DNA from: a phage
DNA length: 64,000 nt
Direction: 5' to 3' (one strand)
Sequence record: PV805638.1
The position numbers were made by a program, and so were the translations under genes. The notes under the pieces are model-generated. The model was not told the origin of the DNA and ran no database searches. It was given only the letters and a program-made list of their open reading frames with translations. Positions 2,991 through 64,000 of the stretch are shown here, piece by piece (position 1 is the stretch's first letter; each line of letters begins with the position of its first letter).

Positions 2991-3208
2991 TGTACTCAAA
3001 CGATTATGGTATATGCCCAGTCTGTAAGAAAGGACGTGGAGTTGCCAATCATAAGCGTTGTAGTCGTATATTGCAGAAGCAACGGAACCAGGAAGAATGG
3101 GCTAAGGTGCTGGAAAATCAGCATAAAGAAGAGAATCAACAGATGGCTGTTAGGGCATCTACTCAACGTATTCGCCGTATTAACTATATACAGGGGTATC
3201 AGAAATGA
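2987..3208 (+). CDS. hypothetical protein with CPVCKK motif
   Basis: ORF 73 aa; coupled ATGA junctions on both sides. Confidence 0.5.
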   Translation: MMYSNDYGICPVCKKGRGVANHKRCSRILQKQRNQEEWAKVLENQHKEENQQMAVRASTQRIRRINYIQGYQK

Positions 3209-3564
3209 AACTGATTGTAGCTGGTGGACGTGACTTCACTGACACCAATCGTATGATTATTGAATTACAAAAGCTAGTGGAATCTGGTGAAATAATTGAT
3301 TCACCTGAACTTGTATGTGGTATGGCTAGAGGAGCAGACATTACAGCATACAATCTCTGGAAAGGAGCAGGAATGATAATACATGAATTTCCTGCTGACT
3401 GGGACAGACTAGGTAAGCGTGCAGGTTATGTACGTAATACCGAAATGGCTAATTTCGCAGATACTCTTGTAGCATTCTGGGATGGTAAGTCAAAAGGAAC
3501 CAAGCACATGATTGATACCATGACCCGGTTCAATAATAAGAAAGTAATAGTGGTGAGGTACTAA
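3205..3564 (+). CDS. DUF2493 (SLOG-family, DprA/LOG-like Rossmann) protein
   Basis: VAGGRDF ... GMARGAD ... EFPADWDRLGKRAGYVRN ... FWDGKSKGT matches the DUF2493 pattern from memory. Confidence 0.6.
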   Translation: MKLIVAGGRDFTDTNRMIIELQKLVESGEIIDSPELVCGMARGADITAYNLWKGAGMIIHEFPADWDRLGKRAGYVRNTEMANFADTLVAFWDGKSKGTKHMIDTMTRFNNKKVIVVRY

Positions 3565-5387: not shown

Positions 5388-6206
5388 ATGTACTCATCTA
5401 TCGAACATCAGAAGCAGCTTGAAGTCCTATTCAATAAAAATCAATTACTGCCTCGCATGAGGAAGGAATTCGAGGACTCCAAAGAAATTGACTTTAAGGC
5501 ATTCGCTGCCTATTTAGAAATTGATTATAAGCTGCTCATTGATGCAATGGTGCAGATTGCCCTACATAAACGTGCTGACATCCAGACTATGATTGGCTCT
5601 CTTATGAGTCACTCAGATGATGCTCAGTATATCGCTGACTGTCTGTATAAGATGGCAGAGAATGACTGCTTCAACTATGACCCTACCATCGACAAGTTCG
5701 GTGTTATCTATGAGATTAGTGAAGATGTCCAGATGGAACTGGAAGCATTCCAGTATCCGTTACCTATCGTAAGTGCTCCTAATCCTGTCAGATCTAACAG
5801 GGATACTGGTTACTACCAGACTAGGGGAAGCATTATCCTCAAAAAGAACCATCATGAGATGGATGTCTGCCTTGATCACATCAACCGTATGAACAATCAA
5901 CGCCTCTGTATTAACTGGGATGTTGCTAACTATGTAAAAGATTCTCGTCCTAACATGGATAAACCCAAAGAGGGTGAAACCCGTCAGGAATATGAGAAAC
6001 GTGTTAAAGCCTTTGAGAAGTACAGTCGTACTGCTAAGGAAGTAATGGAGTTAGTGACTCAAGAAGGGAATAACTTCTCACTAGGCCACAAATACGACAA
6101 ACGTGGGCGTACCTACGCTCAGGGCTATCACATTAACTATCAGGGAACCAGCTACAACAAAGCTGTTCTGGAGTTCGCTGATAAGGAGCTGGTAAACGAT
6201 GATTAA
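5388..6206 (+). CDS. phage RNA polymerase II small subunit (T7-like RNAP N-terminal half, N4 RNAP1-like)
   Basis: 272 aa; YDKRGRTYAQG resembles the T7-RNAP D-x-x-GR motif; immediately upstream of a gene carrying motifs A/B/C. Confidence 0.6.
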   Translation: MYSSIEHQKQLEVLFNKNQLLPRMRKEFEDSKEIDFKAFAAYLEIDYKLLIDAMVQIALHKRADIQTMIGSLMSHSDDAQYIADCLYKMAENDCFNYDPTIDKFGVIYEISEDVQMELEAFQYPLPIVSAPNPVRSNRDTGYYQTRGSIILKKNHHEMDVCLDHINRMNNQRLCINWDVANYVKDSRPNMDKPKEGETRQEYEKRVKAFEKYSRTAKEVMELVTQEGNNFSLGHKYDKRGRTYAQGYHINYQGTSYNKAVLEFADKELVNDD

Positions 6207-6359
6207 TAATCGTGCAGTAGAAGACTTCTATGCTCATAGAGAGTTGGTACTGAAACGTATCAATGAAGCAATGAAACGTGAAGCAGAAGCTAAAGCTAAA
6301 CGTAACCGTAAATAAATCCAAATGCGAGCCAAGTGGCTCAAGACGCTAAGGAATACAAA

Positions 6360-6791
6360 ATGCAACTGTTAACTGCCCGTGAATACCTGAAAGTAGATAT
6401 CGCTAACAACTATGGCTTAGACAAGAAGACATGGGATGAGCGTATTAGCTGGTTCGATGAGAATGAAGCTAACCTGCTTAATCTGGTAGATGAAGCTGAA
6501 GAATCTGCATTGTTCTATGCTGGTGTAAACGCATGGAAAGATATGAAAGCCGGTAAGCCTATCGGTTATGCTGTAGCTCTGGATGCTACATCATCCGGCT
6601 TACAGCTACTGGCTTGCCTGACTGGTGACCGTTCTGCTGCTGAACTGTGTAACGTAGTTAACTACATGGGGGAGAATGGTAAGCCATTACGTCGTGATGC
6701 TTATACAGTTATCTATCACAAGATGCTGGACATCCTTGGTGAAGCATCTCGTATTAAACGTAGTGATACTAAGCAGGCCGTTAACCTATAA
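6360..6791 (+). CDS. phage RNA polymerase II large subunit (RNAP2), 5' exon / N-terminal fragment
   Basis: DATSSGLQLLACLTGD resembles T7 RNAP motif A (DGSCSGIQH); ORF stops inside the motif-B region (SDTKQAVNL*). Confidence 0.6.
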   Translation: MQLLTAREYLKVDIANNYGLDKKTWDERISWFDENEANLLNLVDEAEESALFYAGVNAWKDMKAGKPIGYAVALDATSSGLQLLACLTGDRSAAELCNVVNYMGENGKPLRRDAYTVIYHKMLDILGEASRIKRSDTKQAVNL

Positions 6792-7596
6792 GTCATGGCG
6801 GCCTTTAAACCGGGTGAACTCATGGAACATCCCTAGTGGACAATCATGAGCCAAGTTGGTAACGTAGAAAGCTCAATAAGGAGCATTCTATGTCAGAATT
6901 CAAAACGTGCAGTCGATGTAAAGAATTACTTCCTATCGAAGTATTCCCAGAGACTAAAAAAGCAATCACAGGACTCAAGACTAATTACGAGAATCGTTGC
7001 AGACCTTGCAAGGCTGCTGCTGCTCGTGAATGGCGTAAAAATAATCCCGGTTACACTGGAACTGGGATTCTTAAGGCAATACCGGAAGAGCATCGTAAAT
7101 GGTATTCAGCAGTCTCACTTAGACTGAGAGATGCAAAGAGCAGATGTAAAAAGCTCGGTAAGCCTATGCCTGATTGCACAGTAGAGTACTTATTTGAAAT
7201 CCTTAAATCACAGGAATTCAAATGTGCTTTAACTGGTGCAACCTTAGTAATTGAGTCGGGACATCCCTTGTGTCTATCATTAGACCAGATAGAGCCAAGC
7301 AAGGGATATAGTATTGATAATGTTCAATGGTTAGCTTGGTGTGTAAACCGAGCAAAGGGTGACCTTTCTACCAATGACTTTATTGATATGTGTGATGCTG
7401 TTTTGAATAACCAAAAGGTGCAGAGACTATCGAAAAGCAGCGTAAGCTGAACTTAGTAGAGTAGGCCCAAGTGGGTCGAAGCGCCCGGCTAGACTAATAG
7501 TCTAGATGATATAGTCCGAACTCACTGGTAACAGTGAGATGCAGGTAAAGCTGCTGGGGAAGATTAACGACCTTCCTTGAACATAATGTATGACTG
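6790..7596 (+). mobile_element. putative group I intron (about 0.8 kb) with HNH homing endonuclease ORF, interrupting RNAP2
   Basis: RNAP2 homology stops at 6791 and resumes at about 7590 in motif B; no RBS before the 3' part; GNRA-capped hairpin 7521..7538 and other hairpins; boundaries are approximate (+/-10 nt). Confidence 0.45.
6890..7450 (+). CDS. HNH homing endonuclease
   Basis: 186 aa; strong AAGGAG RBS; N-terminal Cys cluster and SLDQIEPSKGYSIDNVQWLAWCVNRAKGD HNH-type motif. Confidence 0.7.
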   Translation: MSEFKTCSRCKELLPIEVFPETKKAITGLKTNYENRCRPCKAAAAREWRKNNPGYTGTGILKAIPEEHRKWYSAVSLRLRDAKSRCKKLGKPMPDCTVEYLFEILKSQEFKCALTGATLVIESGHPLCLSLDQIEPSKGYSIDNVQWLAWCVNRAKGDLSTNDFIDMCDAVLNNQKVQRLSKSSVS

Positions 7597-8384
7597 CATT
7601 CTATGGTTCAGAAGCCAAGCCTAAAGAAGTATTCGGTGAAGGTATTCGTCTCAAGACTTTTGAGAATGTAATGGAAACAGTTGCTAGTGGACCTTGGGCA
7701 CTGAACAAGTTCTTACTGCAATGTGGTAACCCGGATGCTAGCCGTTACGTATGGGTACTGCCTGACAATTTCCATGCTGTCATTAAGGTCATGGTTCCAG
7801 AGGTACAGACCGTTAACTTCTTAGGTAAGCCATTCGACATCACTCGTATGGTTCAGGGTACTGAAGATAAGACTCGTATGCTCTCTGCTAACATCACCCA
7901 CTCTATTGATGGAATGGTGGTACGTGAGATGCTGCGTCGCTGTAACTTCGACATGAACCAGGTGAACTATATTAAGTCCCTCTGTGAAGGGACCAGTGAG
8001 TATATGCTGGGTACTAGCGAAAACTACGACATGGTTAGTCAACTGTGGCATAACTATGAGAAATCAGGATTCCTGTCTACCCGTATCTTTGATTATCTGG
8101 ATTCTGACTCAATTAAACTGGTTGATACAGATGTAATCATGGCTATGCTTAATACCATGCCTAAGAAACCATTCCCTGTAATGACCGTACATGACTGCTT
8201 CCGTTGTCATCCTAACTATGGCAATGACTTGCGTCGTCAGTACAATCAGATTCTGTCTGACATTGCTAAGAGTGACCTACTGGGCTTCATCCTGTCTCAG
8301 GTACTGGGGCAAGAGTTCTCTGCTGGTAAGCTGGATGACAGCCTCTGGCAGGACATCCTTGAAACGGATTATGCATTAAGTTAA
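7590..8384 (+). CDS. phage RNA polymerase II large subunit (RNAP2), 3' exon / C-terminal fragment
   Basis: AFYGSEAKPKE resembles T7 motif B (LAYGSKEFG); TVHDCFRCHP resembles motif C (HDSFGT); exon 1 + exon 2 is about 410 aa. Confidence 0.6.
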   Translation: MTAFYGSEAKPKEVFGEGIRLKTFENVMETVASGPWALNKFLLQCGNPDASRYVWVLPDNFHAVIKVMVPEVQTVNFLGKPFDITRMVQGTEDKTRMLSANITHSIDGMVVREMLRRCNFDMNQVNYIKSLCEGTSEYMLGTSENYDMVSQLWHNYEKSGFLSTRIFDYLDSDSIKLVDTDVIMAMLNTMPKKPFPVMTVHDCFRCHPNYGNDLRRQYNQILSDIAKSDLLGFILSQVLGQEFSAGKLDDSLWQDILETDYALS

Positions 8385-8392
8385 TAAACTGG

Positions 8393-8427
8393 CCTCATAC
8401 CTTCGGGTATGGGGCTTTTATTTTTTG
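8393..8427 (+). terminator. rho-independent terminator
   Basis: 10-bp GC-rich hairpin followed by TTTTATTTTTT. Confidence 0.7.
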
Positions 8428-8443
8428 CTTGGAGGTAGTCAAC

Positions 8444-8626
8444 ATGACAGACATCTATGATGTTATTACTAAAACCGTACTGATAGTTTTATCTGCTATT
8501 GTGGTATTCACTATAGCCAATATTCATAAAACCAAGTTTTCCTATTGCTACTATGGGGCATATTCTGCCGGATGTTTTGTATTAGCCGGTTGGATAGCTT
8601 ACTGGATTTACCGCATCAACAACTAG
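8444..8626 (+). CDS. small membrane protein
   Basis: GGAGG RBS before ATG 8444; two hydrophobic segments. Confidence 0.5.
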   Translation: MTDIYDVITKTVLIVLSAIVVFTIANIHKTKFSYCYYGAYSAGCFVLAGWIAYWIYRINN

Positions 8627-8655
8627 CCACCCTCATGGGTGGCTTTCTTTTTTAT
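8626..8655 (+). terminator. rho-independent terminator
   Basis: AGCCACCC-TCAT-GGGTGGCT hairpin followed by TTTCTTTTTT. Confidence 0.65.
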
Positions 8656-8700
8656 CAGCCTTCATAATGATTAGGCATATTTACTCAAGAGGATACATGT

Positions 8701-9522
8701 ATGCCAACCCTAAAGATTGCGTTTAATAAAACTACCAACGTTGCTATCGTGCTTGATTCAGATGGTAGTGTTCCAGATGGTTTTGCGGAAGTAGGTACTT
8801 TTGTACATCCTGATGCCACTTACCCTGATAGCTTAGTTATCTATCACGGTGTACGTGACCTGTTGTATAAACGTTCTGCTGAAGACCCTGCTGAAGAAGG
8901 TTTCTGGCCTAACAACATCGTGGATATGCAGTCAATCACTATTACCCCACAACTGACTATTGCTACCGAACTGCCTAATGAAGTCTCTGCCAACGAAGGT
9001 GAAGATATTAACTGGCATGTTGATGTAGCAGGCGGTAAAACACCTTTTACCTATAAGTGGCAATACAAAGCAGATACTGATGGTGCAGTATTCACTGATA
9101 TTGATTCTAGTGATAACGCATCTGCTGCTACTGCAACATTGACCCTTAATGGCGTAACCGCTGCTTCTGCTGGTACTTATAAAGTGATTGTTACTGATGC
9201 TAATGGAACCACGGTGGAAGATACCTCACTGCTGGTTGTAAGCTACCCCGAAGCAAGCTCACTGGTAGCTACTCCTGATTCACTGGAACTGTCTGTTGCT
9301 GACGATGCCACTGATGGTAAGACTGTAACCATTACTGCTTTGCCTGTAGGAGCATCTGTTGGTACTTTATCTATCAAAACTGCTCCAGATTCTGCCCGTG
9401 CTACAGCTACCATTTCTGATAACGTACTGACAGTTAAACCTGTGGCAGAAGGTGAAGCTACTTCTGTAGTAGTTACCAACGGTACTGTCGATGTAACCAT
9501 CGCTATTACTGTTGCAGCATAA
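8701..9522 (+). CDS. Ig-like domain protein (tandem Ig/BIG-like repeats)
   Basis: 273 aa, Thr/Ala/Val-rich beta-strand pattern; two repeats ending in GTYKV-like / ATSVVVTNG motifs typical of Ig-like folds. Confidence 0.55.
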   Translation: MPTLKIAFNKTTNVAIVLDSDGSVPDGFAEVGTFVHPDATYPDSLVIYHGVRDLLYKRSAEDPAEEGFWPNNIVDMQSITITPQLTIATELPNEVSANEGEDINWHVDVAGGKTPFTYKWQYKADTDGAVFTDIDSSDNASAATATLTLNGVTAASAGTYKVIVTDANGTTVEDTSLLVVSYPEASSLVATPDSLELSVADDATDGKTVTITALPVGASVGTLSIKTAPDSARATATISDNVLTVKPVAEGEATSVVVTNGTVDVTIAITVAA

Positions 9523-9572
9523 GGGTATCCCTTATTTGGGGTTATAAACCCTGAAAGGAATCCCTCTAGTTT

Positions 9573-9602
9573 GACCTCCCTATTAAAGGGAGGTCTTTTT
9601 TT
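9573..9602 (+). terminator. rho-independent terminator
   Basis: 9-bp hairpin GACCTCCCT-ATTAA-AGGGAGGTC followed by TTTTTTT. Confidence 0.7.
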
Positions 9603-9627
9603 GACTTAAACAAACCGGAGCCAGGAA

Positions 9628-9816
9628 ATGTATAAAGAGATTGCATTCTTCTCGTTCTTGCTAGGTGGGTTAATTGGTGCAGGAATTGTAGCTATTTCTA
9701 ATAACTACTTTGGTTCTACTCCAAACTCTGTAACACAAACCCTCAAGCATGAATGTGAATTGAATATCCCTCGCAACCAAAACTGTGTAATGCAGTTCGT
9801 ACCGGAGAAGAAATGA
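9628..9816 (+). CDS. small membrane protein
   Basis: 62 aa, N-terminal TM helix. Confidence 0.45.
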   Translation: MYKEIAFFSFLLGGLIGAGIVAISNNYFGSTPNSVTQTLKHECELNIPRNQNCVMQFVPEKK

Positions 9817-9998
9817 AACTTACTCTGTCCCAAGCAATTTTCCTTCGCATGGTTCAAGGTGGTTCTGCCACCAACAACCGTAATAACAAAACCGCACAGT
9901 CTCTTAAGAAGCTGGGCTTAGTACAGTTCAATGCTGGTCTTGGGTGGTCATTAACCCCTACCGGCGTACTTCAACTCAACGAATTAAAAGGTAACTAA
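9813..9998 (+). CDS. hypothetical protein
   Basis: 61 aa, ATGA-coupled. Confidence 0.4.
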   Translation: MKLTLSQAIFLRMVQGGSATNNRNNKTAQSLKKLGLVQFNAGLGWSLTPTGVLQLNELKGN

Positions 9999-10325
9999 AT
10001 GAAAACTTTAATTGCTGTTGTTCTTGTAGCTCTATCAGTTCTGTCATTCGGTGCTCAGGCATCTAGTCGTGCAACCTTATTGGAAGCTGCTGCTGATTAC
10101 AAAGCCAATAATGCAAACTTTGTGAACCAGGGTTACTTCATGGGCATGGTTACTATGGGTGTGGAAGCAGGAAAGAATTGTGTACCTGACGGTATAAAAT
10201 TAGGGCACATTTTTGACAGAGTGGCCTCTATTATTCTGTATGACCGAAAGGTTAATGCAGTAAAAGTACCATCAGACATGGTTCTGTTAGCGATTAATAC
10301 AGCCTATCCCTGCGTTAAATCTTAA
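9999..10325 (+). CDS. secreted/periplasmic protein (signal peptide, likely cleavage after AQA)
   Basis: N-terminal MKTLIAVVLVALSVLSFGAQA signal-peptide pattern; 2 Cys in mature part. Confidence 0.5.
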   Translation: MKTLIAVVLVALSVLSFGAQASSRATLLEAAADYKANNANFVNQGYFMGMVTMGVEAGKNCVPDGIKLGHIFDRVASIILYDRKVNAVKVPSDMVLLAINTAYPCVKS

Positions 10326-10359
10326 TTAGTAATTCCATTAACTTTAGGAGAGTAAGTAA

Positions 10360-11412
10360 ATGGCGAGCATTGACTCCTTGACTGTATGTAATACACGTCA
10401 AGCCCGTAACTTTATTATCCGTGCCTTGCAAGCAGGTAACGTACCGTTCCTGACTTCATCACCGGGTATGGGTAAGTCTGCAATTATTCGTTCTATTGCA
10501 GAAGAATTTGGTATGAAGCTGATTGACCATCGTTTGTCTACTTCTGCCCCGGAAGACTTATCTGGTCTACCATTCCGTAATGGTGACCGTGCAGAGTTTA
10601 TCCCTTTCGCTGACTTATTCCCTATCGAGGGTGACGAAGTACCAGAAGGTTATAATGGCTGGCTCCTGTTCCTTGATGAGTTCAACTCAGCTAAAAAGGA
10701 AGTAGTAGCTGCTGCATACAAACTGATTCTAGACCGTATGACCGGACAGAAAAAACTTCACCCTAATGTGATGATTATCTGTGCCGGTAACAAAGCCACT
10801 GACCGAGCCATAGTTAACCCGCTGGGTACTGCAATGCAGTCCCGTGTTGTCCACTTCGAAATGGAACTCGACTTCGACATCTTTGTTGAAGACGTAATGA
10901 TTCCTCAAGAATGGGATGAGCGTCTGGTTGCATTCTTACATGCTAACCCTGGTTATCTGCATGACTTCGACCCTGCCCACAAGAACAAAACATTCTGTTG
11001 CCCTCGTACCTGGGACTTTGTTAACAAAGACCTCAAGAACCGACCAGAAGGTGCTTTGCCTGATGAAGATTCTATCTACTATGCTGGACACGTTACTGCC
11101 GGTAAAGCTACAGAGTTTGTTCAGTTCACTCAGGTATACAATCGTATGATTACGATTGAGAAGGTAGTCAAAGACCCATTAGGCTGTGCACTACCGGAAG
11201 ATAATAACCTGTGTTGGGCTACTGTTAACCATCTGGCTAACAAAACTACTGAAGATAACTTCGCTGATGTTCTTCAGTACATTGAACGCTTTAAAACGTT
11301 CACCCATAAGATTCTGTACTTCCGTACAGTAGGCAAAGCATTACCAGAAATTCAGGCTACCCCTGAATGGCGTAAGGCTGCTGCCAATATCTCTCGTTAC
11401 ATTCACGGATAA
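10360..11412 (+). CDS. MoxR-like AAA+ ATPase
   Basis: Walker A SPGMGKS, Walker B LLFLDEFN, MoxR-type sensor region; AGGAGA RBS. Confidence 0.7.
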   Translation: MASIDSLTVCNTRQARNFIIRALQAGNVPFLTSSPGMGKSAIIRSIAEEFGMKLIDHRLSTSAPEDLSGLPFRNGDRAEFIPFADLFPIEGDEVPEGYNGWLLFLDEFNSAKKEVVAAAYKLILDRMTGQKKLHPNVMIICAGNKATDRAIVNPLGTAMQSRVVHFEMELDFDIFVEDVMIPQEWDERLVAFLHANPGYLHDFDPAHKNKTFCCPRTWDFVNKDLKNRPEGALPDEDSIYYAGHVTAGKATEFVQFTQVYNRMITIEKVVKDPLGCALPEDNNLCWATVNHLANKTTEDNFADVLQYIERFKTFTHKILYFRTVGKALPEIQATPEWRKAAANISRYIHG

Positions 11413-11419
11413 TCACAAC

Positions 11420-12595
11420 ATGAACCAGATACCTCAGCACACACTTAGTGATGAACAACTCATGCGTGAGTATGACCGTATTCAGGCCCAAGCCTTCCTA
11501 GGCAAGTCTGCTGCGTTTTTTGGTTCATTGCTGTGTAGTCTTAAGTTCTCATGGAAACGTGAGGGTTGTCCCACTGCATGTACCGATGGGATAGAACTCC
11601 ATTTCAACCCTGACTTCTTTATCTGGATGTGCCCTGATGCAAGAGAAACAGTGCTAATGCACGAACTCTGGCATGTGGCATATCTGCATGGCATCCGTTG
11701 TGGAAGCCGTGACCCGGAAGTCTGGAACCAGGCATGTGACCACTTCATTAACCTTCAGTTAGAAGAAGATGGTTACAAGTTCACTGGTATCGACGAAGGT
11801 ATTTGCAAAGACCCTCAATATAAAGGATGGGTCGAAGAAGACATCTACGATGACCTGATGAAGAACCCTCAGAAAAGGCAGAAGCCGTCGGGGGGAGCTG
11901 GAGCAAGTCTTGCTGGCGACATGAAAGCCCCCTCTTCGGGGCAGTCCCAGGGTGCTGTTGTCAACAACGTAGTGCGTGCAATGCAAAGCCAGAAGATGGC
12001 TGGTGGAACAATGCCCGGTAAAGGTGCTGGTCGTATGGAAGAGGTTATTACCCAATTCCTTAAACCAGTAGTTCCATGGCAGGAAGTTCTGATGAACTTC
12101 TTTACCGACATTGATGACACACATTATACGTGGGCCAGACCTAACCGTCGCTTCACTGACGTCTATCTACCTTCTCTGGAAGATGATGAAGGACGCTTAC
12201 GACACTTAGCCTACTTTGAGGATGTATCCGGTTCTATTAGTAGTGCTGACTCTCTGCGTTTTAACTCAGAGGTTGCCTACGTTAAGAGCCAGTTCAATCC
12301 TAAGAAGATGACCCTAATTACCTTCGACGATATTATCCAAGAAGAAATAGACATCACTGAAGAAGATACTTTTGAAGAGATTAAGATTACTGGTCGTGGT
12401 GGTACAAACCTTGAACCAGTGCGCGAATGGATTATTAAGAATAAACCAACCGCTGCAATCATATTCTCCGATATGTATGTTCGTCCAATGGAAGAATTAC
12501 CATTTGATATCCCTATCATCTGGTGTGTTCTGAATAATCCTAATGCTACCGTACCTTTCGGGGAGGTAGTTCATATCCCTAAAGGAATGAAATAA
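11420..12595 (+). CDS. vWA-domain protein with N-terminal putative metallopeptidase (HExxH) domain (DUF2201-like)
   Basis: MHELWH HExxH motif; DVSGSISS MIDAS-like DxSxS; directly downstream of the MoxR ATPase. Confidence 0.6.
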   Translation: MNQIPQHTLSDEQLMREYDRIQAQAFLGKSAAFFGSLLCSLKFSWKREGCPTACTDGIELHFNPDFFIWMCPDARETVLMHELWHVAYLHGIRCGSRDPEVWNQACDHFINLQLEEDGYKFTGIDEGICKDPQYKGWVEEDIYDDLMKNPQKRQKPSGGAGASLAGDMKAPSSGQSQGAVVNNVVRAMQSQKMAGGTMPGKGAGRMEEVITQFLKPVVPWQEVLMNFFTDIDDTHYTWARPNRRFTDVYLPSLEDDEGRLRHLAYFEDVSGSISSADSLRFNSEVAYVKSQFNPKKMTLITFDDIIQEEIDITEEDTFEEIKITGRGGTNLEPVREWIIKNKPTAAIIFSDMYVRPMEELPFDIPIIWCVLNNPNATVPFGEVVHIPKGMK

Positions 12596-13311: not shown

Positions 13312-13384
13312 GTAGCTGCCTAAATAGCCCAACTATGTTGGGCTATTTGTGAAGAAACTATCTCAACCTCACATAGGAACCATC

Positions 13385-13645
13385 ATGGAATCTTTAGCAG
13401 CAATCCTCGTTCTGTTATTTGCACTTGCTGTATACCTTATCCCTACTATTATTGCTTTTGCACGAGGCCATGCCTCTAAGTGGGGCATTGGTGTACTCAA
13501 TATCGTATTAGGCTGGTCTTTAGTCTTCTGGGTAGTAGCACTGATTTGGTCACTGTCTAATAAAGAACAGTCTCAGACTACAATCGTTAACGTTGGTAGT
13601 GGTAACCAGTACAACGTGTCTCAAACGAGCCTGTCTGATAAGTAA
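13385..13645 (+). CDS. membrane protein (2 TM)
   Basis: ATG 13385 with AGGAA RBS; ORF-track start 13349 falls in the upstream hairpin. Confidence 0.5.
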   Translation: MESLAAILVLLFALAVYLIPTIIAFARGHASKWGIGVLNIVLGWSLVFWVVALIWSLSNKEQSQTTIVNVGSGNQYNVSQTSLSDK

Positions 13646-13720
13646 CTAACCTAAGCATCATTGTATAGTGGTGCTTGTGGAAGTTACTTCCAGCTCATTA
13701 CTTATCCATCTCCTAATCCA

Positions 13721-13746
13721 AGCCCACCTAACCCGTGGGCTTTTTT
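13721..13746 (+). terminator. rho-independent terminator
   Basis: AGCCCAC...GTGGGCT hairpin followed by TTTTTT. Confidence 0.65.
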
Positions 13747-13762
13747 AATTACAGGTACTCTT

Positions 13763-14143
13763 ATGTCAAACAGACAAAATGGTAAGTCTATCTTATATGG
13801 ACTGGACTTAAGTAAACTGGAACAAACTGCAATGCTTACTTTAGGTATACATGACCAAGTAGAAGTGAATGGAATTGGTCCTGATGTTTGTGCAGCAATG
13901 CAAGCTGCTATTCAGAAAGGATGGACTAGTAGATCATTTAATGTTTTCCCATACATCCCTCCTGAACCTCATCTGAAATCTAAGGTAGACAGAATCATAG
14001 ATAAGTTCTGGCTTAGCCCATGCGGGGATGACATGCATCTTTACCTGGCTCAAATACAAAAGAATCCGCGTACTAAAGATGTGTTCAAAGGCAAAAGCAC
14101 TACCCACCATTACCCTTGGTATAGAAGAGGTAGTAAATACTAA
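13763..14143 (+). CDS. hypothetical protein
   Basis: 126 aa from the first ATG after the terminator; the ORF-track start 13661 reads through the terminator. Confidence 0.45.
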   Translation: MSNRQNGKSILYGLDLSKLEQTAMLTLGIHDQVEVNGIGPDVCAAMQAAIQKGWTSRSFNVFPYIPPEPHLKSKVDRIIDKFWLSPCGDDMHLYLAQIQKNPRTKDVFKGKSTTHHYPWYRRGSKY

Positions 14144-53140: not shown

Positions 53141-54343
53141 TTACAGAGGAGCAACAGTCTTAATCAGAGCCAGACGTTCTGGGCGTTTAACCAGGATACC
53201 GTAGTACCACTTGATGGAACTGAAGCCAGTCTCACCATACGGATCATTACGGTCAGCAGTTTCACGACCAGGCATCTTAGTCATGATGGAGAACTTAACA
53301 GACTTACCATCAGTCTGGAAGCCAATGGTAGAGAAGGAGTCATCACCAACTACCAGCATCGGGAATACGTCGTAGTGTTCCTGACCACTAACCATAGATG
53401 AACGGTAACCAGGGTTAGTAGAGACTTGAGCACCAGCACCTGCCCAATGCAGCATCTCAGGAACCTGGATAATACGGAACTTGTCGATACAACCAATCTC
53501 ACCATTCATCAGAGTACCAGCATCAGCATAGTGCTGAACCTCGACAAATGCTTTGTTACCGAACAGGTCTTTCATCGCTTTCAGTTCTGGAACCAGTTCA
53601 GAACCAACGTACATTACACGAGTACCACCAAGTACTTTGGTATCAGTAAGTTTAGAACCAGTGATGATAGTAGTCTGGGTCGGAGTACGGTTCTCAGTAA
53701 GAATCTGGTCAAGACGCATCAGGTTCTTATAAGAAACTACAGACGGGGTAAGACCTTCACCAGTGATGGTAGCATCAGAGGTAGCAGCACCTGCATACAG
53801 TACAGTACCAGCAGCAGCCAACAGGTCTTTCTGGAGAACAGCTTCAGTCAGCTGTACAGCACCGTTCATCAGTTCACGAGACAGGTGTTCTTTCAGTTGG
53901 TCATCAGAATCAAAGTCCAGGGACTCTTGGGTAAATTCATAGAAGAAACCGAACTTATGAATGGAACCTTCACGGGACAGACGAGTAAAGCCTACACGGT
54001 TAACACGACCACCGTTCTCTGTCAGCAGAGGCAGTTTAGAAGTGATGTTACCAACGTCTCGGGAAGAACCATACAGGTTACCATTAACGATGGTAGCACC
54101 ATTAGCATCAATACCCTGGTCGTTGATGTTCTTATCGTCAAGCAGTGGAACGTATTCGTACACCTTAACAGTCTTACCGTAGTTCTTCGGCATGTTAATG
54201 GTGTTAGCCAGTGGCATGAAGTACTGGTCTTTACGGGACTGAATAATAGCTTTCTTCAGCCAGTAATAGGTATTCATCTGGTCGGAACCAGAACCATCAA
54301 TGCTAGATTTCTGGCCGTCAATTGGGGCGTTATAGTTTAACAT
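53141..54343 (-). CDS. major capsid protein (N4 gp56-like)
   Basis: 400 aa; size and position match N4 MCP as I recall it; shadow ORF on opposite strand. Confidence 0.75.
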
Positions 54344-59920: not shown

Positions 59921-60167
59921 AGGGATTTTCTCAGGTTAGTTAAGTCGTAATTGACTAAAACAGTCTACCTAATGACTTGTTTTTGGTACAACAAAAACCC
60001 ACCCCCCGCAACCTAGTTGGGCTGGTTAAAGCCTGAAATATGGAACAGCAGTCACCAAAACAACAAAGACCATACTTAGGGTTGAGACAATCATATGGGT
60101 GGCTATATGCGTATAATATTTTTAGGGAGCAAGTGTATACTTGCTCCCCAGAGTTATCTCAGAGTCA

Positions 60168-62702
60168 TCAGAACACATAATCCAGTTGCGTAAGCTGCTT
60201 CAACTGAATCTGCACGGTACTATCCAGAGTTACTGCCGGAACAGTTAAGCCAGAAACACCGATTGCAAAGTCCGCAATGAACCCGGTAGTAGGATTCTTT
60301 ACTATATCCGCCCCAGTACCCCCAGAACCTGTACTTGCAAACTGAGTCTGCTTAGTACCATAAGCATTCCCTGTACCCGCAATAACTAGTTGCCATACAC
60401 CCCTGCCGAGCGTACCTGGAATACTCAAGCTACCTGAACCAGCAGCCCGAAATATCTTGGTATTCTCATAGAACATACACTCTTGCAACGTGCAGGTACT
60501 TCTCTGCCCGGTACTCACAACCTGATTACCCCGGAAGCTAAAGTTAGTCTGGTCATTCAGAACGAAGTCACACAGCTTAGCCTCTTGCACCCGCACGTTC
60601 ATATCCAGAGTGTTGGCATGAGCAATCAGGGACTTAGGAATACCTTGCACCTTATATCCAACAGCACGATAACTTAAATCCAGAGAGTTGTACTGCTTCA
60701 CGGAGTTGCCAATCAGCTTAACCGTCTGTCCCCGATATACCTGGGATGCGCTAGCCCCAGCGTTAACTATAATAGCCTCGGTTGTGTTATTGACAGTCTG
60801 ACACTTAAGTACAACCGTATTGTGACTGATATCGATATCCTGGTACACCTGGTATGAGCTATCCCCTGCTCCGGTCGATATAGCTACCCCATCAAAAGCT
60901 CTAAGCTCGCAATAGTTGTTGTGAATCTTAACAAAGGGGTTCGGATACGTCGCTGCCGTAGCCTCCCCGCCGCCACCTACATCGATGCTGCGAGTATACT
61001 TTCCACCTATAAGCAGTCCGGAAGTAGCACTAGCAGGAATATCTCTGGAGCGCACATAGTTGTTGCTAACGATGAGGTTGTATGGTTCGTAGTTTGGATT
61101 CCAACCTGCCCCACATTTAGCATATATACCAACTACGCCGTGCTCAAGGCACATGTTCTCCGTGATGATTACCTGCCCACCACCGTGGAAGTCAATACAC
61201 TTACGACGACAGTTCTTAATCTGGTTTTTAGCAACAACTACGTTCCTGATTCTTCGGTTACGCGCATGCGAAATACCGTACCCAGGGTCGTAGCTATCGT
61301 TCAGAACATCATCACCATAAGGGTGTCCAATATTCTGGATATCGTTGGACTCATAGTTTAGTCTGTAGCCGGACAGTACGTAGATACCTGCACTGTAGCA
61401 ATCCTTGATGGTACAGCCCATAACCATAACACCGTCAGGTACATCCGTGTCATTCGTATAATCCGTGCTGCCGTAGGTAGTCGCAATGTTACGGATGCCG
61501 ATACCAATGCCACCAAAGTTAAAACCGGATACGTGCGAGTTCAGAATAAGGATGCCACGGCAGCCGCGTTGCACCTTGATACCATTAGCCCAGCTTCCGA
61601 TGTAACCGCCAAGGAAAGTCCCCCAGGTACTGCGCCACCCATCCAACTGATTACCCGCGTCATCATAGTTAGGGAACTGTCCAGCTACACCAGCATAAGC
61701 ACCAGACGTGTACGCACTGGAGTCAACGGAGTTATTAGGACCTGTAAACAGTGCTGTATCGTATCCGAAACGAGCCTCACCTTTCTCTGCATAACCAGTA
61801 GGCACATCTATAGCAGGGAACTTGTTAGGGCCACGCACAGTCAGCGATACAGTCACGTTCCGGCAATTTACAAGGGCAAGTCCGTCCAGCCCATGCGTAT
61901 TCACAATTATAGTGCCGTTGGAGATACGAATACCTTCCTTATTTACCAGTGCCAGACACGGACTGTAGTTACGTGTACCGTCGCTGAAGTCAGGCTCAGT
62001 AGGGTACGTAGAAGCCAATGCAGGATTTTTTCGAACTAAATATGTCTTTCCTCCTAAATCAATATCTCCAGTGGCGGCGTCGAAACATGCCTGCACTGCC
62101 AACGTATCGTCGGCAACGCCATCGCCAACCGCCCCCCATCCACGTGGATCGCCATTATCACGCCAGCGAGCCATTTGTAGTTCGGGGTATTTTGTTGCAC
62201 CTTCAGGGTCTGAAATCTGTCCTCGTAGCACCACATCCCCAACACTCACCCAAGCACCCAGACCAACACCACCAGAAGTTTTAGGGGTTGAGTCGGCAGG
62301 AACTACTTTAGGCAATACACCATCCCATCGATACTTACCATCGGTAAAGACAACCAGTTCATTCTTGGTATTAACTGTTACACCAGTATCAAATGAACCA
62401 GGTAAGGTTACATACTCTTCACGAGCAACAGCAAGTGCACCTAAGTCCACACTACCAGCAGAGTGTACTAATACCCCAGATGGACTAAGACTTGCAGCAG
62501 TAACCCCTGAACCAATGTCAGCAGGTAAGGAATAAGCACGCTGTGTCTCCTTGTCGTAGATGACTTTGTAACCACTTAGTACAGCACCCACTGAGAAGTA
62601 AACAACCTCAGATTGCTTAACTCCAAAGTGACGGGCTACTGCTTGTTTATTGGTTAAGATTCCAGTTGAACCTTTACCACCTTGAGAGAACATTTCGTTC
62701 AT
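60168..62702 (-). CDS. tailspike with pectate-lyase-like right-handed beta-helix (putative polysaccharide depolymerase)
   Basis: 844 aa; GAVGDGVADDTLAVQACFDAA resembles the pectate_lyase_3 N-cap motif; repeated G/N/I-rich beta-helix rungs. Confidence 0.65.
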   Translation of the reverse strand: MNEMFSQGGKGSTGILTNKQAVARHFGVKQSEVVYFSVGAVLSGYKVIYDKETQRAYSLPADIGSGVTAASLSPSGVLVHSAGSVDLGALAVAREEYVTLPGSFDTGVTVNTKNELVVFTDGKYRWDGVLPKVVPADSTPKTSGGVGLGAWVSVGDVVLRGQISDPEGATKYPELQMARWRDNGDPRGWGAVGDGVADDTLAVQACFDAATGDIDLGGKTYLVRKNPALASTYPTEPDFSDGTRNYSPCLALVNKEGIRISNGTIIVNTHGLDGLALVNCRNVTVSLTVRGPNKFPAIDVPTGYAEKGEARFGYDTALFTGPNNSVDSSAYTSGAYAGVAGQFPNYDDAGNQLDGWRSTWGTFLGGYIGSWANGIKVQRGCRGILILNSHVSGFNFGGIGIGIRNIATTYGSTDYTNDTDVPDGVMVMGCTIKDCYSAGIYVLSGYRLNYESNDIQNIGHPYGDDVLNDSYDPGYGISHARNRRIRNVVVAKNQIKNCRRKCIDFHGGGQVIITENMCLEHGVVGIYAKCGAGWNPNYEPYNLIVSNNYVRSRDIPASATSGLLIGGKYTRSIDVGGGGEATAATYPNPFVKIHNNYCELRAFDGVAISTGAGDSSYQVYQDIDISHNTVVLKCQTVNNTTEAIIVNAGASASQVYRGQTVKLIGNSVKQYNSLDLSYRAVGYKVQGIPKSLIAHANTLDMNVRVQEAKLCDFVLNDQTNFSFRGNQVVSTGQRSTCTLQECMFYENTKIFRAAGSGSLSIPGTLGRGVWQLVIAGTGNAYGTKQTQFASTGSGGTGADIVKNPTTGFIADFAIGVSGLTVPAVTLDSTVQIQLKQLTQLDYVF

Positions 62703-62751
62703 ATAAACCTCATTGTTTTTCTAGGTAAGCCCCCAACTACGGGGGCTTTGA

Positions 62752-64000
62752 TTAAAGCAGTGTGTATTCCACTGTAGATGGAAGGGGGACACCTACTGCT
62801 ACAGGTCTGTTTACTGTAATTACACCAGCAGAGCAAGAAGCAGTATCGTTTGCAGTAGCTGGGTCAACTACCCATGAGCGAACTCTATACGACTTAGTTG
62901 TGTCTGCATTAGGTATAGTTAATGTTCCAGAAGTGGCCCCAATAGCAACAGGAACACTTACTACCCCATTGGTAGCAGGTGTGCCTCTATTAGAACGATA
63001 GTAATTATAAGAATTGGAAGGCTTCAATATTTCCTCAATACCAGTTAATCCGGAATTTTGCACTACAACATCACTAGAACCAGTTAGGTACAACGGATTT
63101 GCCAAAGTACATGAATCAATAACAATACCCCCACCAGTATGGTTAAAAATTGCTATACCCGACCACCCACCGACAAACGTAGACTGGCCGATGTATACAG
63201 GCCCAACATGTTGGCCAGCAATGTTAATACCAATGTTATTATTGAGAGGGTTGGCATTATGCAAATTACAGTGCAAACCAGTAATCGATTTCTGTTGTTG
63301 GATTTGGTTAGCGTTTAAAGAGACTGCAAAAAATTGCTCTGTGGACTCACCATCGCCAGCTATCCATGAATCTGACAGGTTAAATCCACCGTTAACGTTA
63401 ATAATAGCCACGGCATTCTTTCGAATGTAATCCAAATCCAGATTACTCATCTGCAAGTCCAGGCAGTCATCAACATAGATGCCATAATCTACGGAAATAC
63501 ACATAGTTTCCCCATCAATAACGATGGCTTCACTACGAGATCCTGAACTCTGGTCAGGACTCCACGCATACACCCTAGGCTGGATGCGAATGCCAAACGT
63601 GTTACCCAATGTAGAATAATGATCACGGCGGAAATGGCATCCCGTGATATTGATAGAAACGTTTTGCCCCCATAGATGTAACCCCATACGGCAGCTACTA
63701 GTAGTGCAGTTACGCAACGTAGAATGCCACAACCCCTGTAGTTGCATTCCTATTTCAAACACCTCAGCACAAACACCCTGGATATCGAAACCGTAAATTT
63801 GCTGTTCTGCCTCGGCAGTGGATTCAATATCTGTACCAATCCCTATGCCAGTGCCATTCCCCTGCAAGCGGAAATTGTATAAATAACGGCCAGATATCCC
63901 GCCTCCATGCATCAAAACTAACAGACCTTTACCGAGATCAGTGTAGGTTTTAAGACACGAGTTAATACCCTCGCCTCTTAGATTAACAAATGGCTTGAGC
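62752..64000 (-). CDS. second beta-helix tail fibre/tailspike, 5'-truncated by window edge
   Basis: Frame stays open with no stop from 63915 to 64000 on the - strand; Asn/Gly/Ile-rich repeats. Confidence 0.55.
   Translation of the reverse strand, partial: LKPFVNLRGEGINSCLKTYTDLGKGLLVLMHGGGISGRYLYNFRLQGNGTGIGIGTDIESTAEAEQQIYGFDIQGVCAEVFEIGMQLQGLWHSTLRNCTTSSCRMGLHLWGQNVSINITGCHFRRDHYSTLGNTFGIRIQPRVYAWSPDQSSGSRSEAIVIDGETMCISVDYGIYVDDCLDLQMSNLDLDYIRKNAVAIINVNGGFNLSDSWIAGDGESTEQFFAVSLNANQIQQQKSITGLHCNLHNANPLNNNIGINIAGQHVGPVYIGQSTFVGGWSGIAIFNHTGGGIVIDSCTLANPLYLTGSSDVVVQNSGLTGIEEILKPSNSYNYYRSNRGTPATNGVVSVPVAIGATSGTLTIPNADTTKSYRVRSWVVDPATANDTASCSAGVITVNRPVAVGVPLPSTVEYTLL

Follow-up and report, generated by a model that had tools for sequence, protein, structure and literature searches.

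The gene at 8701-9522 encodes, on sequence evidence, an orthologue of N4 gp17, a capsid decoration protein of an already known kind. For the region as a whole, it is highly probable that this N4-type capsid decoration gene lies among independent accessory genes, one of which, gp17.3, is likely of the amidase-immunity type. The DNA analyzed (hereafter the window) is a stretch of 64,000 nucleotides from sequence record PV805638.1. The source phage is a G7C-like Gamaleyavirus (Schitoviridae), an N4-type coliphage, of which the window represents the left ~64 kb. The region examined is 96.9% identical to G7C, a phage in which no lysogeny genes are annotated. The features concerned are as follows.

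8391-8426, + strand: intrinsic terminator after gp16 (RNAP II), its 11-bp stem closed by a UUCG loop and followed by a U-tract (-18.7 kcal/mol, z -5.4).
8444-8626, + strand: homologue of G7C gp16.1, a predicted membrane protein of 60 aa, starting at an ATG with a GGAGG Shine-Dalgarno sequence.
8625-8654, + strand: intrinsic terminator after gp16.1 (-16.2 kcal/mol, z -5.4); an equivalent stem-loop is annotated in G7C.
8701-9522, + strand: predicted capsid decoration protein, N4 gp17 orthologue, 273 aa, pI 4.1, no Cys.
9573-9602, + strand: intrinsic terminator after gp17 (-17.1 kcal/mol, z -3.9); an equivalent stem-loop is annotated in G7C.
9628-9816, + strand: homologue of G7C gp17.1, 62 aa, with a predicted N-terminal transmembrane (TM) segment at aa 5-23 and two Cys in its C-terminal tail.
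9813-9998, + strand: homologue of G7C gp17.2, 61 aa, basic (pI 11.2), whose start overlaps the gp17.1 stop (ATGA).
9999-10325, + strand: homologue of G7C gp17.3, a predicted Sec-exported periplasmic protein of 108 aa, all-alpha.
53141-54343, - strand: major capsid protein (MCP), gp56 homologue, 99% identical to G7C gp56.

The 8701-9522 product shares 95% identity with G7C gp17, the gene of which is annotated as 'capsid decorating protein', and 64% with N4 gp17. When compared with the PDB by phmmer, it matched the N4 chain 9e99_J (E 2.6e-105, query 1-271 / chain 1-277) and the Moo19 gp28 chain 9d7z_J (E 2.3e-83, query 1-273 / chain 1-273); the matched entries of the N4 '32 kDa protein' were 9e99, 9lbz and 9ld7. 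Furthermore, PHROG 2973, which labels gp17 homologues as 'Hoc-like head decoration', was matched with an E value of 4.7e-94. The Ig-like nature of the protein, as announced by the original prediction, was borne out both by a Pfam Ig_3/I-set match at aa 90-178 and by the full-length alignment to the three-domain N4 gp17, and the C-terminal aa 205-272 match a tail protein family at its Ig-like end. By alignment with N4 gp17, from which the domain definition was taken (PMC11768535), three Ig-like domains are predicted: DI (~1-82), DII (~83-183) and DIII (~184-273), with 67%, 65% and 63% identity to their N4 counterparts, respectively.

The N4 and window proteins (279 and 273 aa, respectively) are colinear over their full length and are encoded directly downstream of gp16 in both phages; apart from diverged residues and a few short linker indels, the window protein does not differ from those of N4 and G7C. 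The gp28 protein of Shigella phage Moo19 is likewise Ig-like, 273 aa long and homologous over its full length, and was built into the model of a T=9 schitovirus capsid, but its second Ig domain is more divergent, with a deletion at ~aa 126-140. Moo19 gp28, called Hoc-like by its authors, was entered in their virion-protein table and modelled on the capsid for its first 183 residues only (PMC11654681). The cognate MCPs of N4 and G7C are highly similar to that of the window, which matches the MCP chains 9d7z_A (E 8e-246) and 9e99_A (E 1e-244); both entries hold an MCP chain together with a gp17-homologue chain. In the G7C record, gp51, gp54 and gp67 are flagged 'confirmed presence in G7C virion', a flag that gp17 does not carry. 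From the homologues, we infer that gp17 is present on the capsid of this phage, with the gp56 homologue as its probable binding partner.

In the N4 capsid, the three Ig-like domains of gp17 lie flat on the surface, with three copies per asymmetric unit and DI placed at the quasi-3-fold axes (PMC11768535). By homology to this structure, each asymmetric unit would likewise hold three copies of the window protein, lying flat around the quasi-2-fold axes on the capsid exterior, which gives a calculated 180 copies (3 x 60) per T=9 capsid. DII would rest on an MCP P-domain, and DIII would be flexible and exposed to the solvent. The cementing role of N4 gp17 was proposed on the basis of interface analysis and of unpublished mutant data cited in the same work (PMC11768535). 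By analogy, the window protein likely cements the capsid, and an accessory role of DIII is a speculative addition.

It could also be argued that the decoration protein serves mainly for adhesion, the exposed DIII binding mucus or host-surface glycans as has been proposed for T4 Hoc. The minimal contact of DIII with the N4 capsid, together with a function termed uncertain and non-structural (PMC11768535), fits this idea, as does the lower identity of gp17 among Gamaleyaviruses (80%, against 96-97% for the backbone genes gp24 and gp25). However, the extensive contacts made by DI and DII at quasi-3-fold and quasi-2-fold sites are consistent with reinforcement (PMC11768535), and DIII is no more divergent from its N4 counterpart than the two other domains. 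A mainly adhesive role is thus considered rather doubtful. T4 Hoc resembles gp17 as an Ig-like outer capsid protein of the dispensable type; N4 gp17 differs from it in lying flat, with its N-terminal DI on the quasi-3-fold axes (PMC11768535), and T4 Hoc (3SHS) was not among the PDB sequence matches of the window protein at E <= 0.01. The two proteins are alike in type without belonging to one family.

The original prediction had placed the Ig-like protein, together with the membrane and secreted proteins encoded on either side, in an envelope-targeted module for superinfection exclusion or surface modification, outside the set of virion components. It had noted correctly that the gene lies away from the virion block: it is found on the + strand, ~44 kb from the MCP gene on the - strand, surrounded by genes that encode membrane and periplasmic proteins. 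In N4, PGN829.1 and St11Ph5, moreover, an N4 gp18-like gene annotated 'superinfection exclusion' follows right after gp17. Nevertheless, the hydropathy and signal scan of the Ig-like protein revealed neither a signal peptide nor a TM segment, and its relatives N4 gp17 and Moo19 gp28 were resolved on capsids by cryo-EM, N4 gp17 on a T=9 capsid (PMC11768535, PMC11654681). Capsid decoration, the very location that the prediction held to be incompatible with its proposal, is thus documented in homologues that are at least 64% identical. In addition, terminators divide the Ig-like gene from both of its neighbours, and the neighbouring genes vary among relatives where gp17 remains constant. The 105-nt gap at 9523-9627 contains no counterpart of the gene annotated as superinfection exclusion, which is absent from the window. 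None of the five proteins matched a known exclusion family (Sie, Imm, Cor or P22 gp17-like PF17420) in Pfam, PHROGs, NCBIfam or PADLOC. An envelope module including the Ig-like protein is therefore very improbable. Envelope targeting does hold for three of the five genes (gp16.1, gp17.1 and gp17.3), which encode predicted envelope-directed proteins, and fails for the Ig-like protein itself.

As a capsid decoration gene, gp17 occupies its customary place. In N4-like phages it normally follows the RNAP II genes (PMC6950046), and the order gp15-gp16-gp17 is common to N4, G7C, St11Ph5, PGN829.1, UE-S5b and the metagenomic relative L009. The gene content of the interval from gp16/gp17 to gp24 varies among close relatives, gp17 being retained, and the N4 genes of this interval (gp18-gp23) showed no homology to any of the small proteins of the window. 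Because terminators separate the genes, because their content varies and because gp17.2, with its winged-helix model, has neither a TM segment nor a signal peptide, it was concluded that the flanking small genes are independent accessory genes in a variable interval before the gp24 ATPase gene, and do not form a single module.

Three strong intrinsic terminators were identified, which enclose gp16.1 and gp17 only. For the one at 8391-8426, none of 200 shuffled sequences was equally stable. The original prediction had assigned a terminator to each unit; this is correct for gp16.1 and gp17, but not for the third unit, as folding against shuffles gave no terminator-like structure downstream of 10325. 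Instead, gp17.1, gp17.2 and gp17.3, linked by an ATGA overlap (9813-9816) and a TAAATG junction (9996-10001), constitute a translationally coupled trio that continues into the gp24 ATPase gene. The location of gp17 beside the RNAP II genes and between terminators would be consistent with a separately controlled expression level. A sigma-70 promoter scan returned a single weak site, inside gp16, which is fewer than in shuffled sequences. The middle promoters of N4 are short AT-rich motifs. In a limited search of the literature on transcription in N4-like phages, no mention of gp17 and its timing was found. Rfam gave no credible RNA family at 8400-10400; matches to CRISPR-DR63 and BjrC1505 (E 0.2-0.45) overlapped the terminators and were rejected. 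As a separate observation, the RNAP II gene is split by an insertion of 807 nt between 6781 and 7589, probably a group I intron, which carries an HNH ORF.

The four open reading frames of the original prediction (8444-8626, 8701-9522, 9628-9816 and 9999-10325) were all found to be real, and to this inventory has to be added 9813-9998 (gp17.2), which had been overlooked. One could suppose that the small ORFs arose by chance or are functionless remnants in decay, since they are short (60-108 aa) and since scans of the four small proteins against Pfam, NCBIfam and PADLOC yielded nothing except a weak Rap1a match. Yet all four display dN/dS values of 0.04-0.20 against relatives with an excess of third-position substitutions, match PHROG families with E values of 1e-33 to 1e-55, and possess plausible ribosome-binding sites with start/stop coupling; confident fold predictions were moreover obtained for gp17.2 and gp17.3. 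Chance or decay is scarcely credible in the face of these data, and the substitution patterns indicate that gp16.1, gp17.1, gp17.2 and gp17.3 are under purifying selection.

Two of these genes are predicted to encode small inner-membrane proteins, in line with what had been anticipated for 8444-8626 and 9628-9816. For gp16.1, a strong hydrophobic segment at aa ~8-26 is separated by a K-rich loop from a second, aromatic/hydrophobic segment at aa 36-56; the alternative TTG start at 8429 is less likely than the ATG at 8444. The protein is 97% identical to G7C gp16.1 and 60% identical to the UE-S5b and St11Ph5 homologues, and it belongs to PHROG 12530 (E 2e-36; dN/dS 0.10-0.13). gp17.1 shares 95-98% identity with its relatives and matches PHROG 7508 (dN/dS 0.04-0.08). 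The third protein, gp17.2, for which the hydropathy and signal scan gave neither a TM segment nor a signal peptide, is modelled as winged-helix-like: its AF2 model has a pLDDT of 89, and the best Foldseek matches were MarR/DtxR/CggR winged-helix domains (TM 0.66-0.77) with weak E values of 0.1-0.8. In L009, a 55% identical gp17.2 homologue is paired with a Rap1a-like gene.

The last member of the trio, gp17.3, carries a predicted signal peptide of canonical Sec type, as had been foreseen, composed of MK, a 15-residue hydrophobic core and AQA|SS, with cleavage after A21, a residue that is invariant in the family. The protein scored 19.5 bits (E 1.4e-3) on Pfam PF18602, the gathering score of which is 27.7, and PDB sequence searches, direct or with a profile, gave no match. 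The connection of gp17.3 with Tai4/Rap1a emerged only from a comparison of folds, from an exhaustive search with profiles and from hhalign. All 17 members of the gp17.3 family match PF18602 and no other family (best E 2.3e-5), and a search with the profile built on the phage family brings up proteins whose PF18602 scores are 53-67 bits; aligned to them with hhalign, this profile gave 99.6% and E 2.6e-24. The confident fold prediction is all-alpha over ~100 residues, as in the Tai4/Rap1a crystal structures. Furthermore, C61 and C105 of gp17.3 are invariant and align with the sole two invariant Cys of bona fide PF18602 members. In Tai4, a cleaved periplasmic leader precedes an all-alpha fold with a conserved Cys48-Cys108 disulfide (PMC3695027). 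Some gp17.3 homologues are already labelled 'Tai4' in GenBank. Sequence profiles and the predicted fold make gp17.3 a probable member of the Rap1a/Tai4 family, divergent and orphan.

Tai4/Rap1a (PF18602; PDB 6ije, 3zfi) and gp17.3 have in common a cleavable Sec leader, an all-alpha mature domain of ~90-100 aa, two invariant Cys in C-x-P and P-C motifs, and a G-[YF]-x-x-G motif. The bacterial proteins are, however, only 24-31% identical to gp17.3, which is encoded by a phage, with gp17.2 and the gp24 ATPase gene as neighbours and no adjacent Tae4/Ssp1 effector or T6SS genes. The annotation of G7C likewise lists no NlpC/P60-type protein and no Tae4-like effector. Within one phage genus, gp17.3 always immediately precedes the gp24 ATPase gene, and it occurs there as two very different alleles, the G7C type and the St11Ph5 type, which are 37% identical to one another, as compared with 89-97% for the flanking backbone proteins. 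Such a divergence is in keeping with a protein that follows the changes of a polymorphic antagonist. Among close relatives, gp17.3 is under purifying selection (dN/dS 0.04-0.16), so the allele divergence may date from a replacement long past instead of reflecting positive selection that still operates.

In the mechanism that we propose, the infected cell would export gp17.3 into its periplasm, where the protein may bind and block an incoming peptidoglycan amidase of the NlpC/P60 type. The target could be a Tae4/Ssp1-type T6SS effector or a similar hydrolase from another phage, and the wall of the infected cell would thereby be shielded until lysis. A putative protective function in the envelope is plausible. 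A more specific version, in which gp17.3 is an orphan T6SS immunity gene of a gut coliphage that neutralizes Tae4/Ssp1-type amidases from neighbouring Enterobacteriaceae, the alleles corresponding to different effector specificities, can be put forward only tentatively. Regarding phage-borne Tai4 or T6SS immunity genes, the papers listed by the literature search were all bacterial studies.

The Rap1a/Tai4 fold may on the other hand have been adopted for a phage-specific role outside T6SS, for instance in blocking the cell-wall hydrolase of a superinfecting phage, which would be true superinfection exclusion, or in timing lysis via a host periplasmic peptidoglycan enzyme. The orphan state of gp17.3 with respect to an annotated cognate effector, its low identity to the bacterial members and its retention immediately upstream of gp24 and next to gp17.2 in distant N4-like phages speak for this role. 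Against it, immunity to Tae4/Ssp1-type amidases is the only function of the family described in the sources consulted (PMC3695027; Pfam PF18602), and the endolysin of G7C and N4 is annotated as an N-acetylmuramidase, not as an NlpC/P60 amidase. We regard such a role as unlikely. Inhibition of the phage's own endolysin by gp17.3 was judged unlikely from the same annotation.

Concerning the Ig-like protein, the results bring nothing new to the biology of the group: it is a documented decoration protein of N4-like phages, and the odd location of its gene is a known trait of these phages. Their value for this gene lies in a corrected annotation and in the removal of a false lead. The gp17.3 gene could matter more, as it encodes a protein of a T6SS amidase-immunity family in one phage genus. 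If gp17.3 acted as a T6SS immunity protein, the infected cell would be kept alive until burst. Should it indeed guard against contact-dependent killing or against the wall hydrolases of other phages, the fitness of these phages would be tied to interbacterial warfare in the gut.

When the region 8400-10400 was used as a megablast query, 56 phage records were retrieved, nearly all of them E. coli N4-like Gamaleyavirus, and the top match was vB_EcoP_G7C, with 96.9% identity across the entire query. Alignment of the whole window to G7C placed base 1 of such a genome at the window start, and colinearity held to about 60 kb with a few insertions and replacements. The features of the locus, with gene names taken from the G7C record, are the following:

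8391-8426: strong hairpin and U-tract terminator
8444-8626: gp16.1
8625-8654: strong hairpin and U-tract terminator
8701-9522: gp17, 'capsid decorating protein'
9573-9602: strong hairpin and U-tract terminator
9628-9816: gp17.1
9813-9998: gp17.2
9999-10325: gp17.3, the Rap1a/Tai4-like gene (2944-3273 in L010, the locus of a relative; 6001-6309 in L009, a metagenomic N4-like contig)
10360-11412: gp24 ATPase, downstream of gp17.3
11420-12595: gp25, after gp24

The main object of the original prediction, the 273-aa product of gp17, is indeed Ig-like, with Pfam Ig_3/I-set matches at aa 90-178, and contains no hydrophobic segment. A sequence search of the PDB returned the N4 '32 kDa protein' over its full length (9e99, 9lbz, 9ld7; E 2.6e-105) and the 273-aa Ig-like protein of 9d7z (E 2.3e-83). 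The window protein is 95% identical to G7C gp17 and 64% to N4 gp17, the latter identity being even across the three domains (67, 65 and 63%). [quoted passage not shown] Moo19 gp28 was modelled on the capsid and is entered in the virion-protein table of the Moo19 paper (PMC11654681). The capsid partner is also encoded in the window, by an MCP gene on the - strand (53141-54343) whose product matches, with an E-value of about 1e-245, the MCP chains in the gp17-homologue PDB entries.

Furthermore, gp17 directly follows the RNAP II gene gp16 in N4, G7C, St11Ph5, PGN829.1, UE-S5b and one metagenomic relative, a position described as usual among N4-like phages in the KP8 paper. The G7C record marks gp51, gp54 and gp67 as confirmed in the virion; gp17 is not so marked. 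Since N4 gp17 and Moo19 gp28 sit on capsids, close homologues of the Ig-like protein are capsid decorations, the very finding that the original prediction had named as contradicting its non-capsid envelope factor, and this role is given up. By homology, gp17 is assigned as a protein that decorates the capsid, as in N4, and it would cement the capsid; the terminators on either side would fit an expression level controlled separately. The protein is already known and annotated.

All the ORFs named originally are present in the window, and gp17.2 had been overlooked. The four small ORFs showed a third-position excess of substitutions relative to G7C, PGN829.1 and UE-S5b (dN/dS 0.04-0.20) and each matched a PHROG family (E 1e-33 to 1e-55), which indicates that they are genuine genes. 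For gp16.1, the ATG at 8444, preceded by GGAGG, was preferred over the TTG at 8429; its product carries a strong hydrophobic segment (aa ~8-26) and, at aa 36-56, another that is aromatic/hydrophobic. The gp17.1 protein has a single N-terminal TM segment and two Cys in its tail, and both proteins are predicted to insert in the inner membrane. The gp17.3 protein bears a textbook Sec leader (AQA|SS, with A21 invariant in 17 homologues) and is predicted to be exported. A terminator scan gave 5 terminator-like sites against 1.7 expected; the three strong ones (-16 to -19 kcal/mol) were equalled in stability by 0 of 200 shuffles, and no terminator-like site was found downstream of 10325. The claim that each unit is bracketed by its own terminator therefore holds for these three terminators and fails after 10325; gp17.1, gp17.2 and gp17.3 are joined by stop/start coupling (ATGA, TAAATG), and this trio continues into gp24.

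The content of the gp17-gp24 interval differs among relatives. In N4 it holds gp18 (annotated as superinfection exclusion, P22 gp17-like), gp19 (membrane), gp20 (lipoprotein), gp21, gp22 (HNH) and gp23, and no homology was found between gp18-gp23 and the small proteins of the window. PGN829.1 and St11Ph5 have an extra gp18-like gene and an 86-aa ORF, UE-S5b only the latter. No protein of the locus matched known superinfection exclusion or defence families. Envelope targeting is retained for three of the five genes, but with a variable interval and no exclusion-family match, the neighbours of gp17 do not make up one module. The window also encodes, at 13349-13645, a homologue of G7C gp27.1, a membrane protein annotated in G7C as T4 Imm-like 'immunity to superinfection', so that a candidate exclusion gene already exists elsewhere in this phage. 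Behind this gene come about 370 bp missing from G7C, with a 160-aa ORF (13661-14143).

Other differences from G7C were observed. The free-standing HNH genes 15.1 (gp15/gp16 gap; window 6206-6381, G7C 6085-6689) and 24.1 (gp24/gp25 gap; window 11412-11429, G7C 10913-11402) are absent, and the window has an HNH-bearing insertion within gp16, so that homing-endonuclease content differs. Shorter early stretches, at about 1595-2113 and 3208-3563, are unmatched in G7C. The region 60010-62352 is without nucleotide similarity to G7C where the latter has tailspike gp63.1 (G7C 61262-63817), which looks like a swap of receptor-binding module.

The RNAP II subunit gene gp16 (6333-8384) is split by an insertion of 807 nt (6782-7588) that contains an HNH/EndoVII-like ORF (6890-7450) and occurs in none of the 56 records of related E. 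coli phages. With 6781 joined to 7589, a gp16 of 405 aa is recovered, equal in length to that of G7C; U is the last base of the 5' exon and G that of the insertion. The Rfam Intron_gpI model scored 30.2 bits (E 5.9e-5), short of the gathering threshold of 50, and the 3' part of the insertion shares 75% identity with the N4-like Achromobacter phages JWAlpha and JWDelta, at their 'endonuclease | RNA polymerase' junction. A mobile group I intron is the probable explanation; because exon 2 opens with ATG, a split RNAP II subunit stands as an alternative.

The sole Pfam match of gp17.3 was Rap1a (PF18602), below threshold. All 17 homologues matched PF18602 and essentially no other family (best E 2.3e-5). 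When the phage-family profile was run exhaustively against 1.8 billion representatives in an HMM search, only 23 proteins came back, four of which scored 53-67 bits on PF18602. When the phage profile was compared by hhalign with that of these more distant matches, a probability of 99.6% (E 2.6e-24) was obtained, a score that includes a contribution from leader sequences. The two invariant Cys of gp17.3 align with the sole invariant Cys of the bacterial proteins; in Tai4 these form the Cys48-Cys108 disulfide, and the protein is exported with its leader cleaved (PMC3695027). G7C has no annotated Tae4-like enzyme, and its annotated endolysin is a muramidase; gp17.3 is therefore considered an orphan. 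It is probably a divergent, orphan phage-encoded member of the type VI secretion (T6SS) immunity family. Some GenBank records of homologues already carry the 'Tai4' label; among the papers listed by literature searches, there was no study of gp17.3.

St11Ph5 proteins are 97% (gp24), 96% (gp25), 97% (gp17.1) and 89% (gp17.2) identical to those of the window, and only 37% for gp17.3, without detectable nucleotide similarity. This divergent form (<60% identity) occurs in 27 of 57 phage records, about half, which marks the locus as an allelic hot spot. The position immediately upstream of gp24 is kept even in a distant N4-like contig, where gp17.2-like (55%) and Rap1a-like (29%) genes directly precede gp24 (73%).

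The neighbouring gp17.2, a homologue of which accompanies the Rap1a-like gene in that distant relative too, is small and basic (pI 11.2) and has neither TM segment nor signal peptide, so it is probably cytoplasmic. Its confident model (pLDDT 89; helix, helix, beta-hairpin, helix) is similar to MarR, DtxR and CggR winged-helix domains (TM 0.66-0.77, weak E-values), and it may be a DNA-binding regulator.

The gp17.3 protein would bind a periplasmic NlpC/P60-type amidase, either a Tae4/Ssp1-type effector from nearby bacteria or a hydrolase of another phage, and thereby would shield the wall of the infected cell. Tae4 is a Salmonella weapon against gut Enterobacteriaceae, so that such protection would be useful to a gut coliphage.
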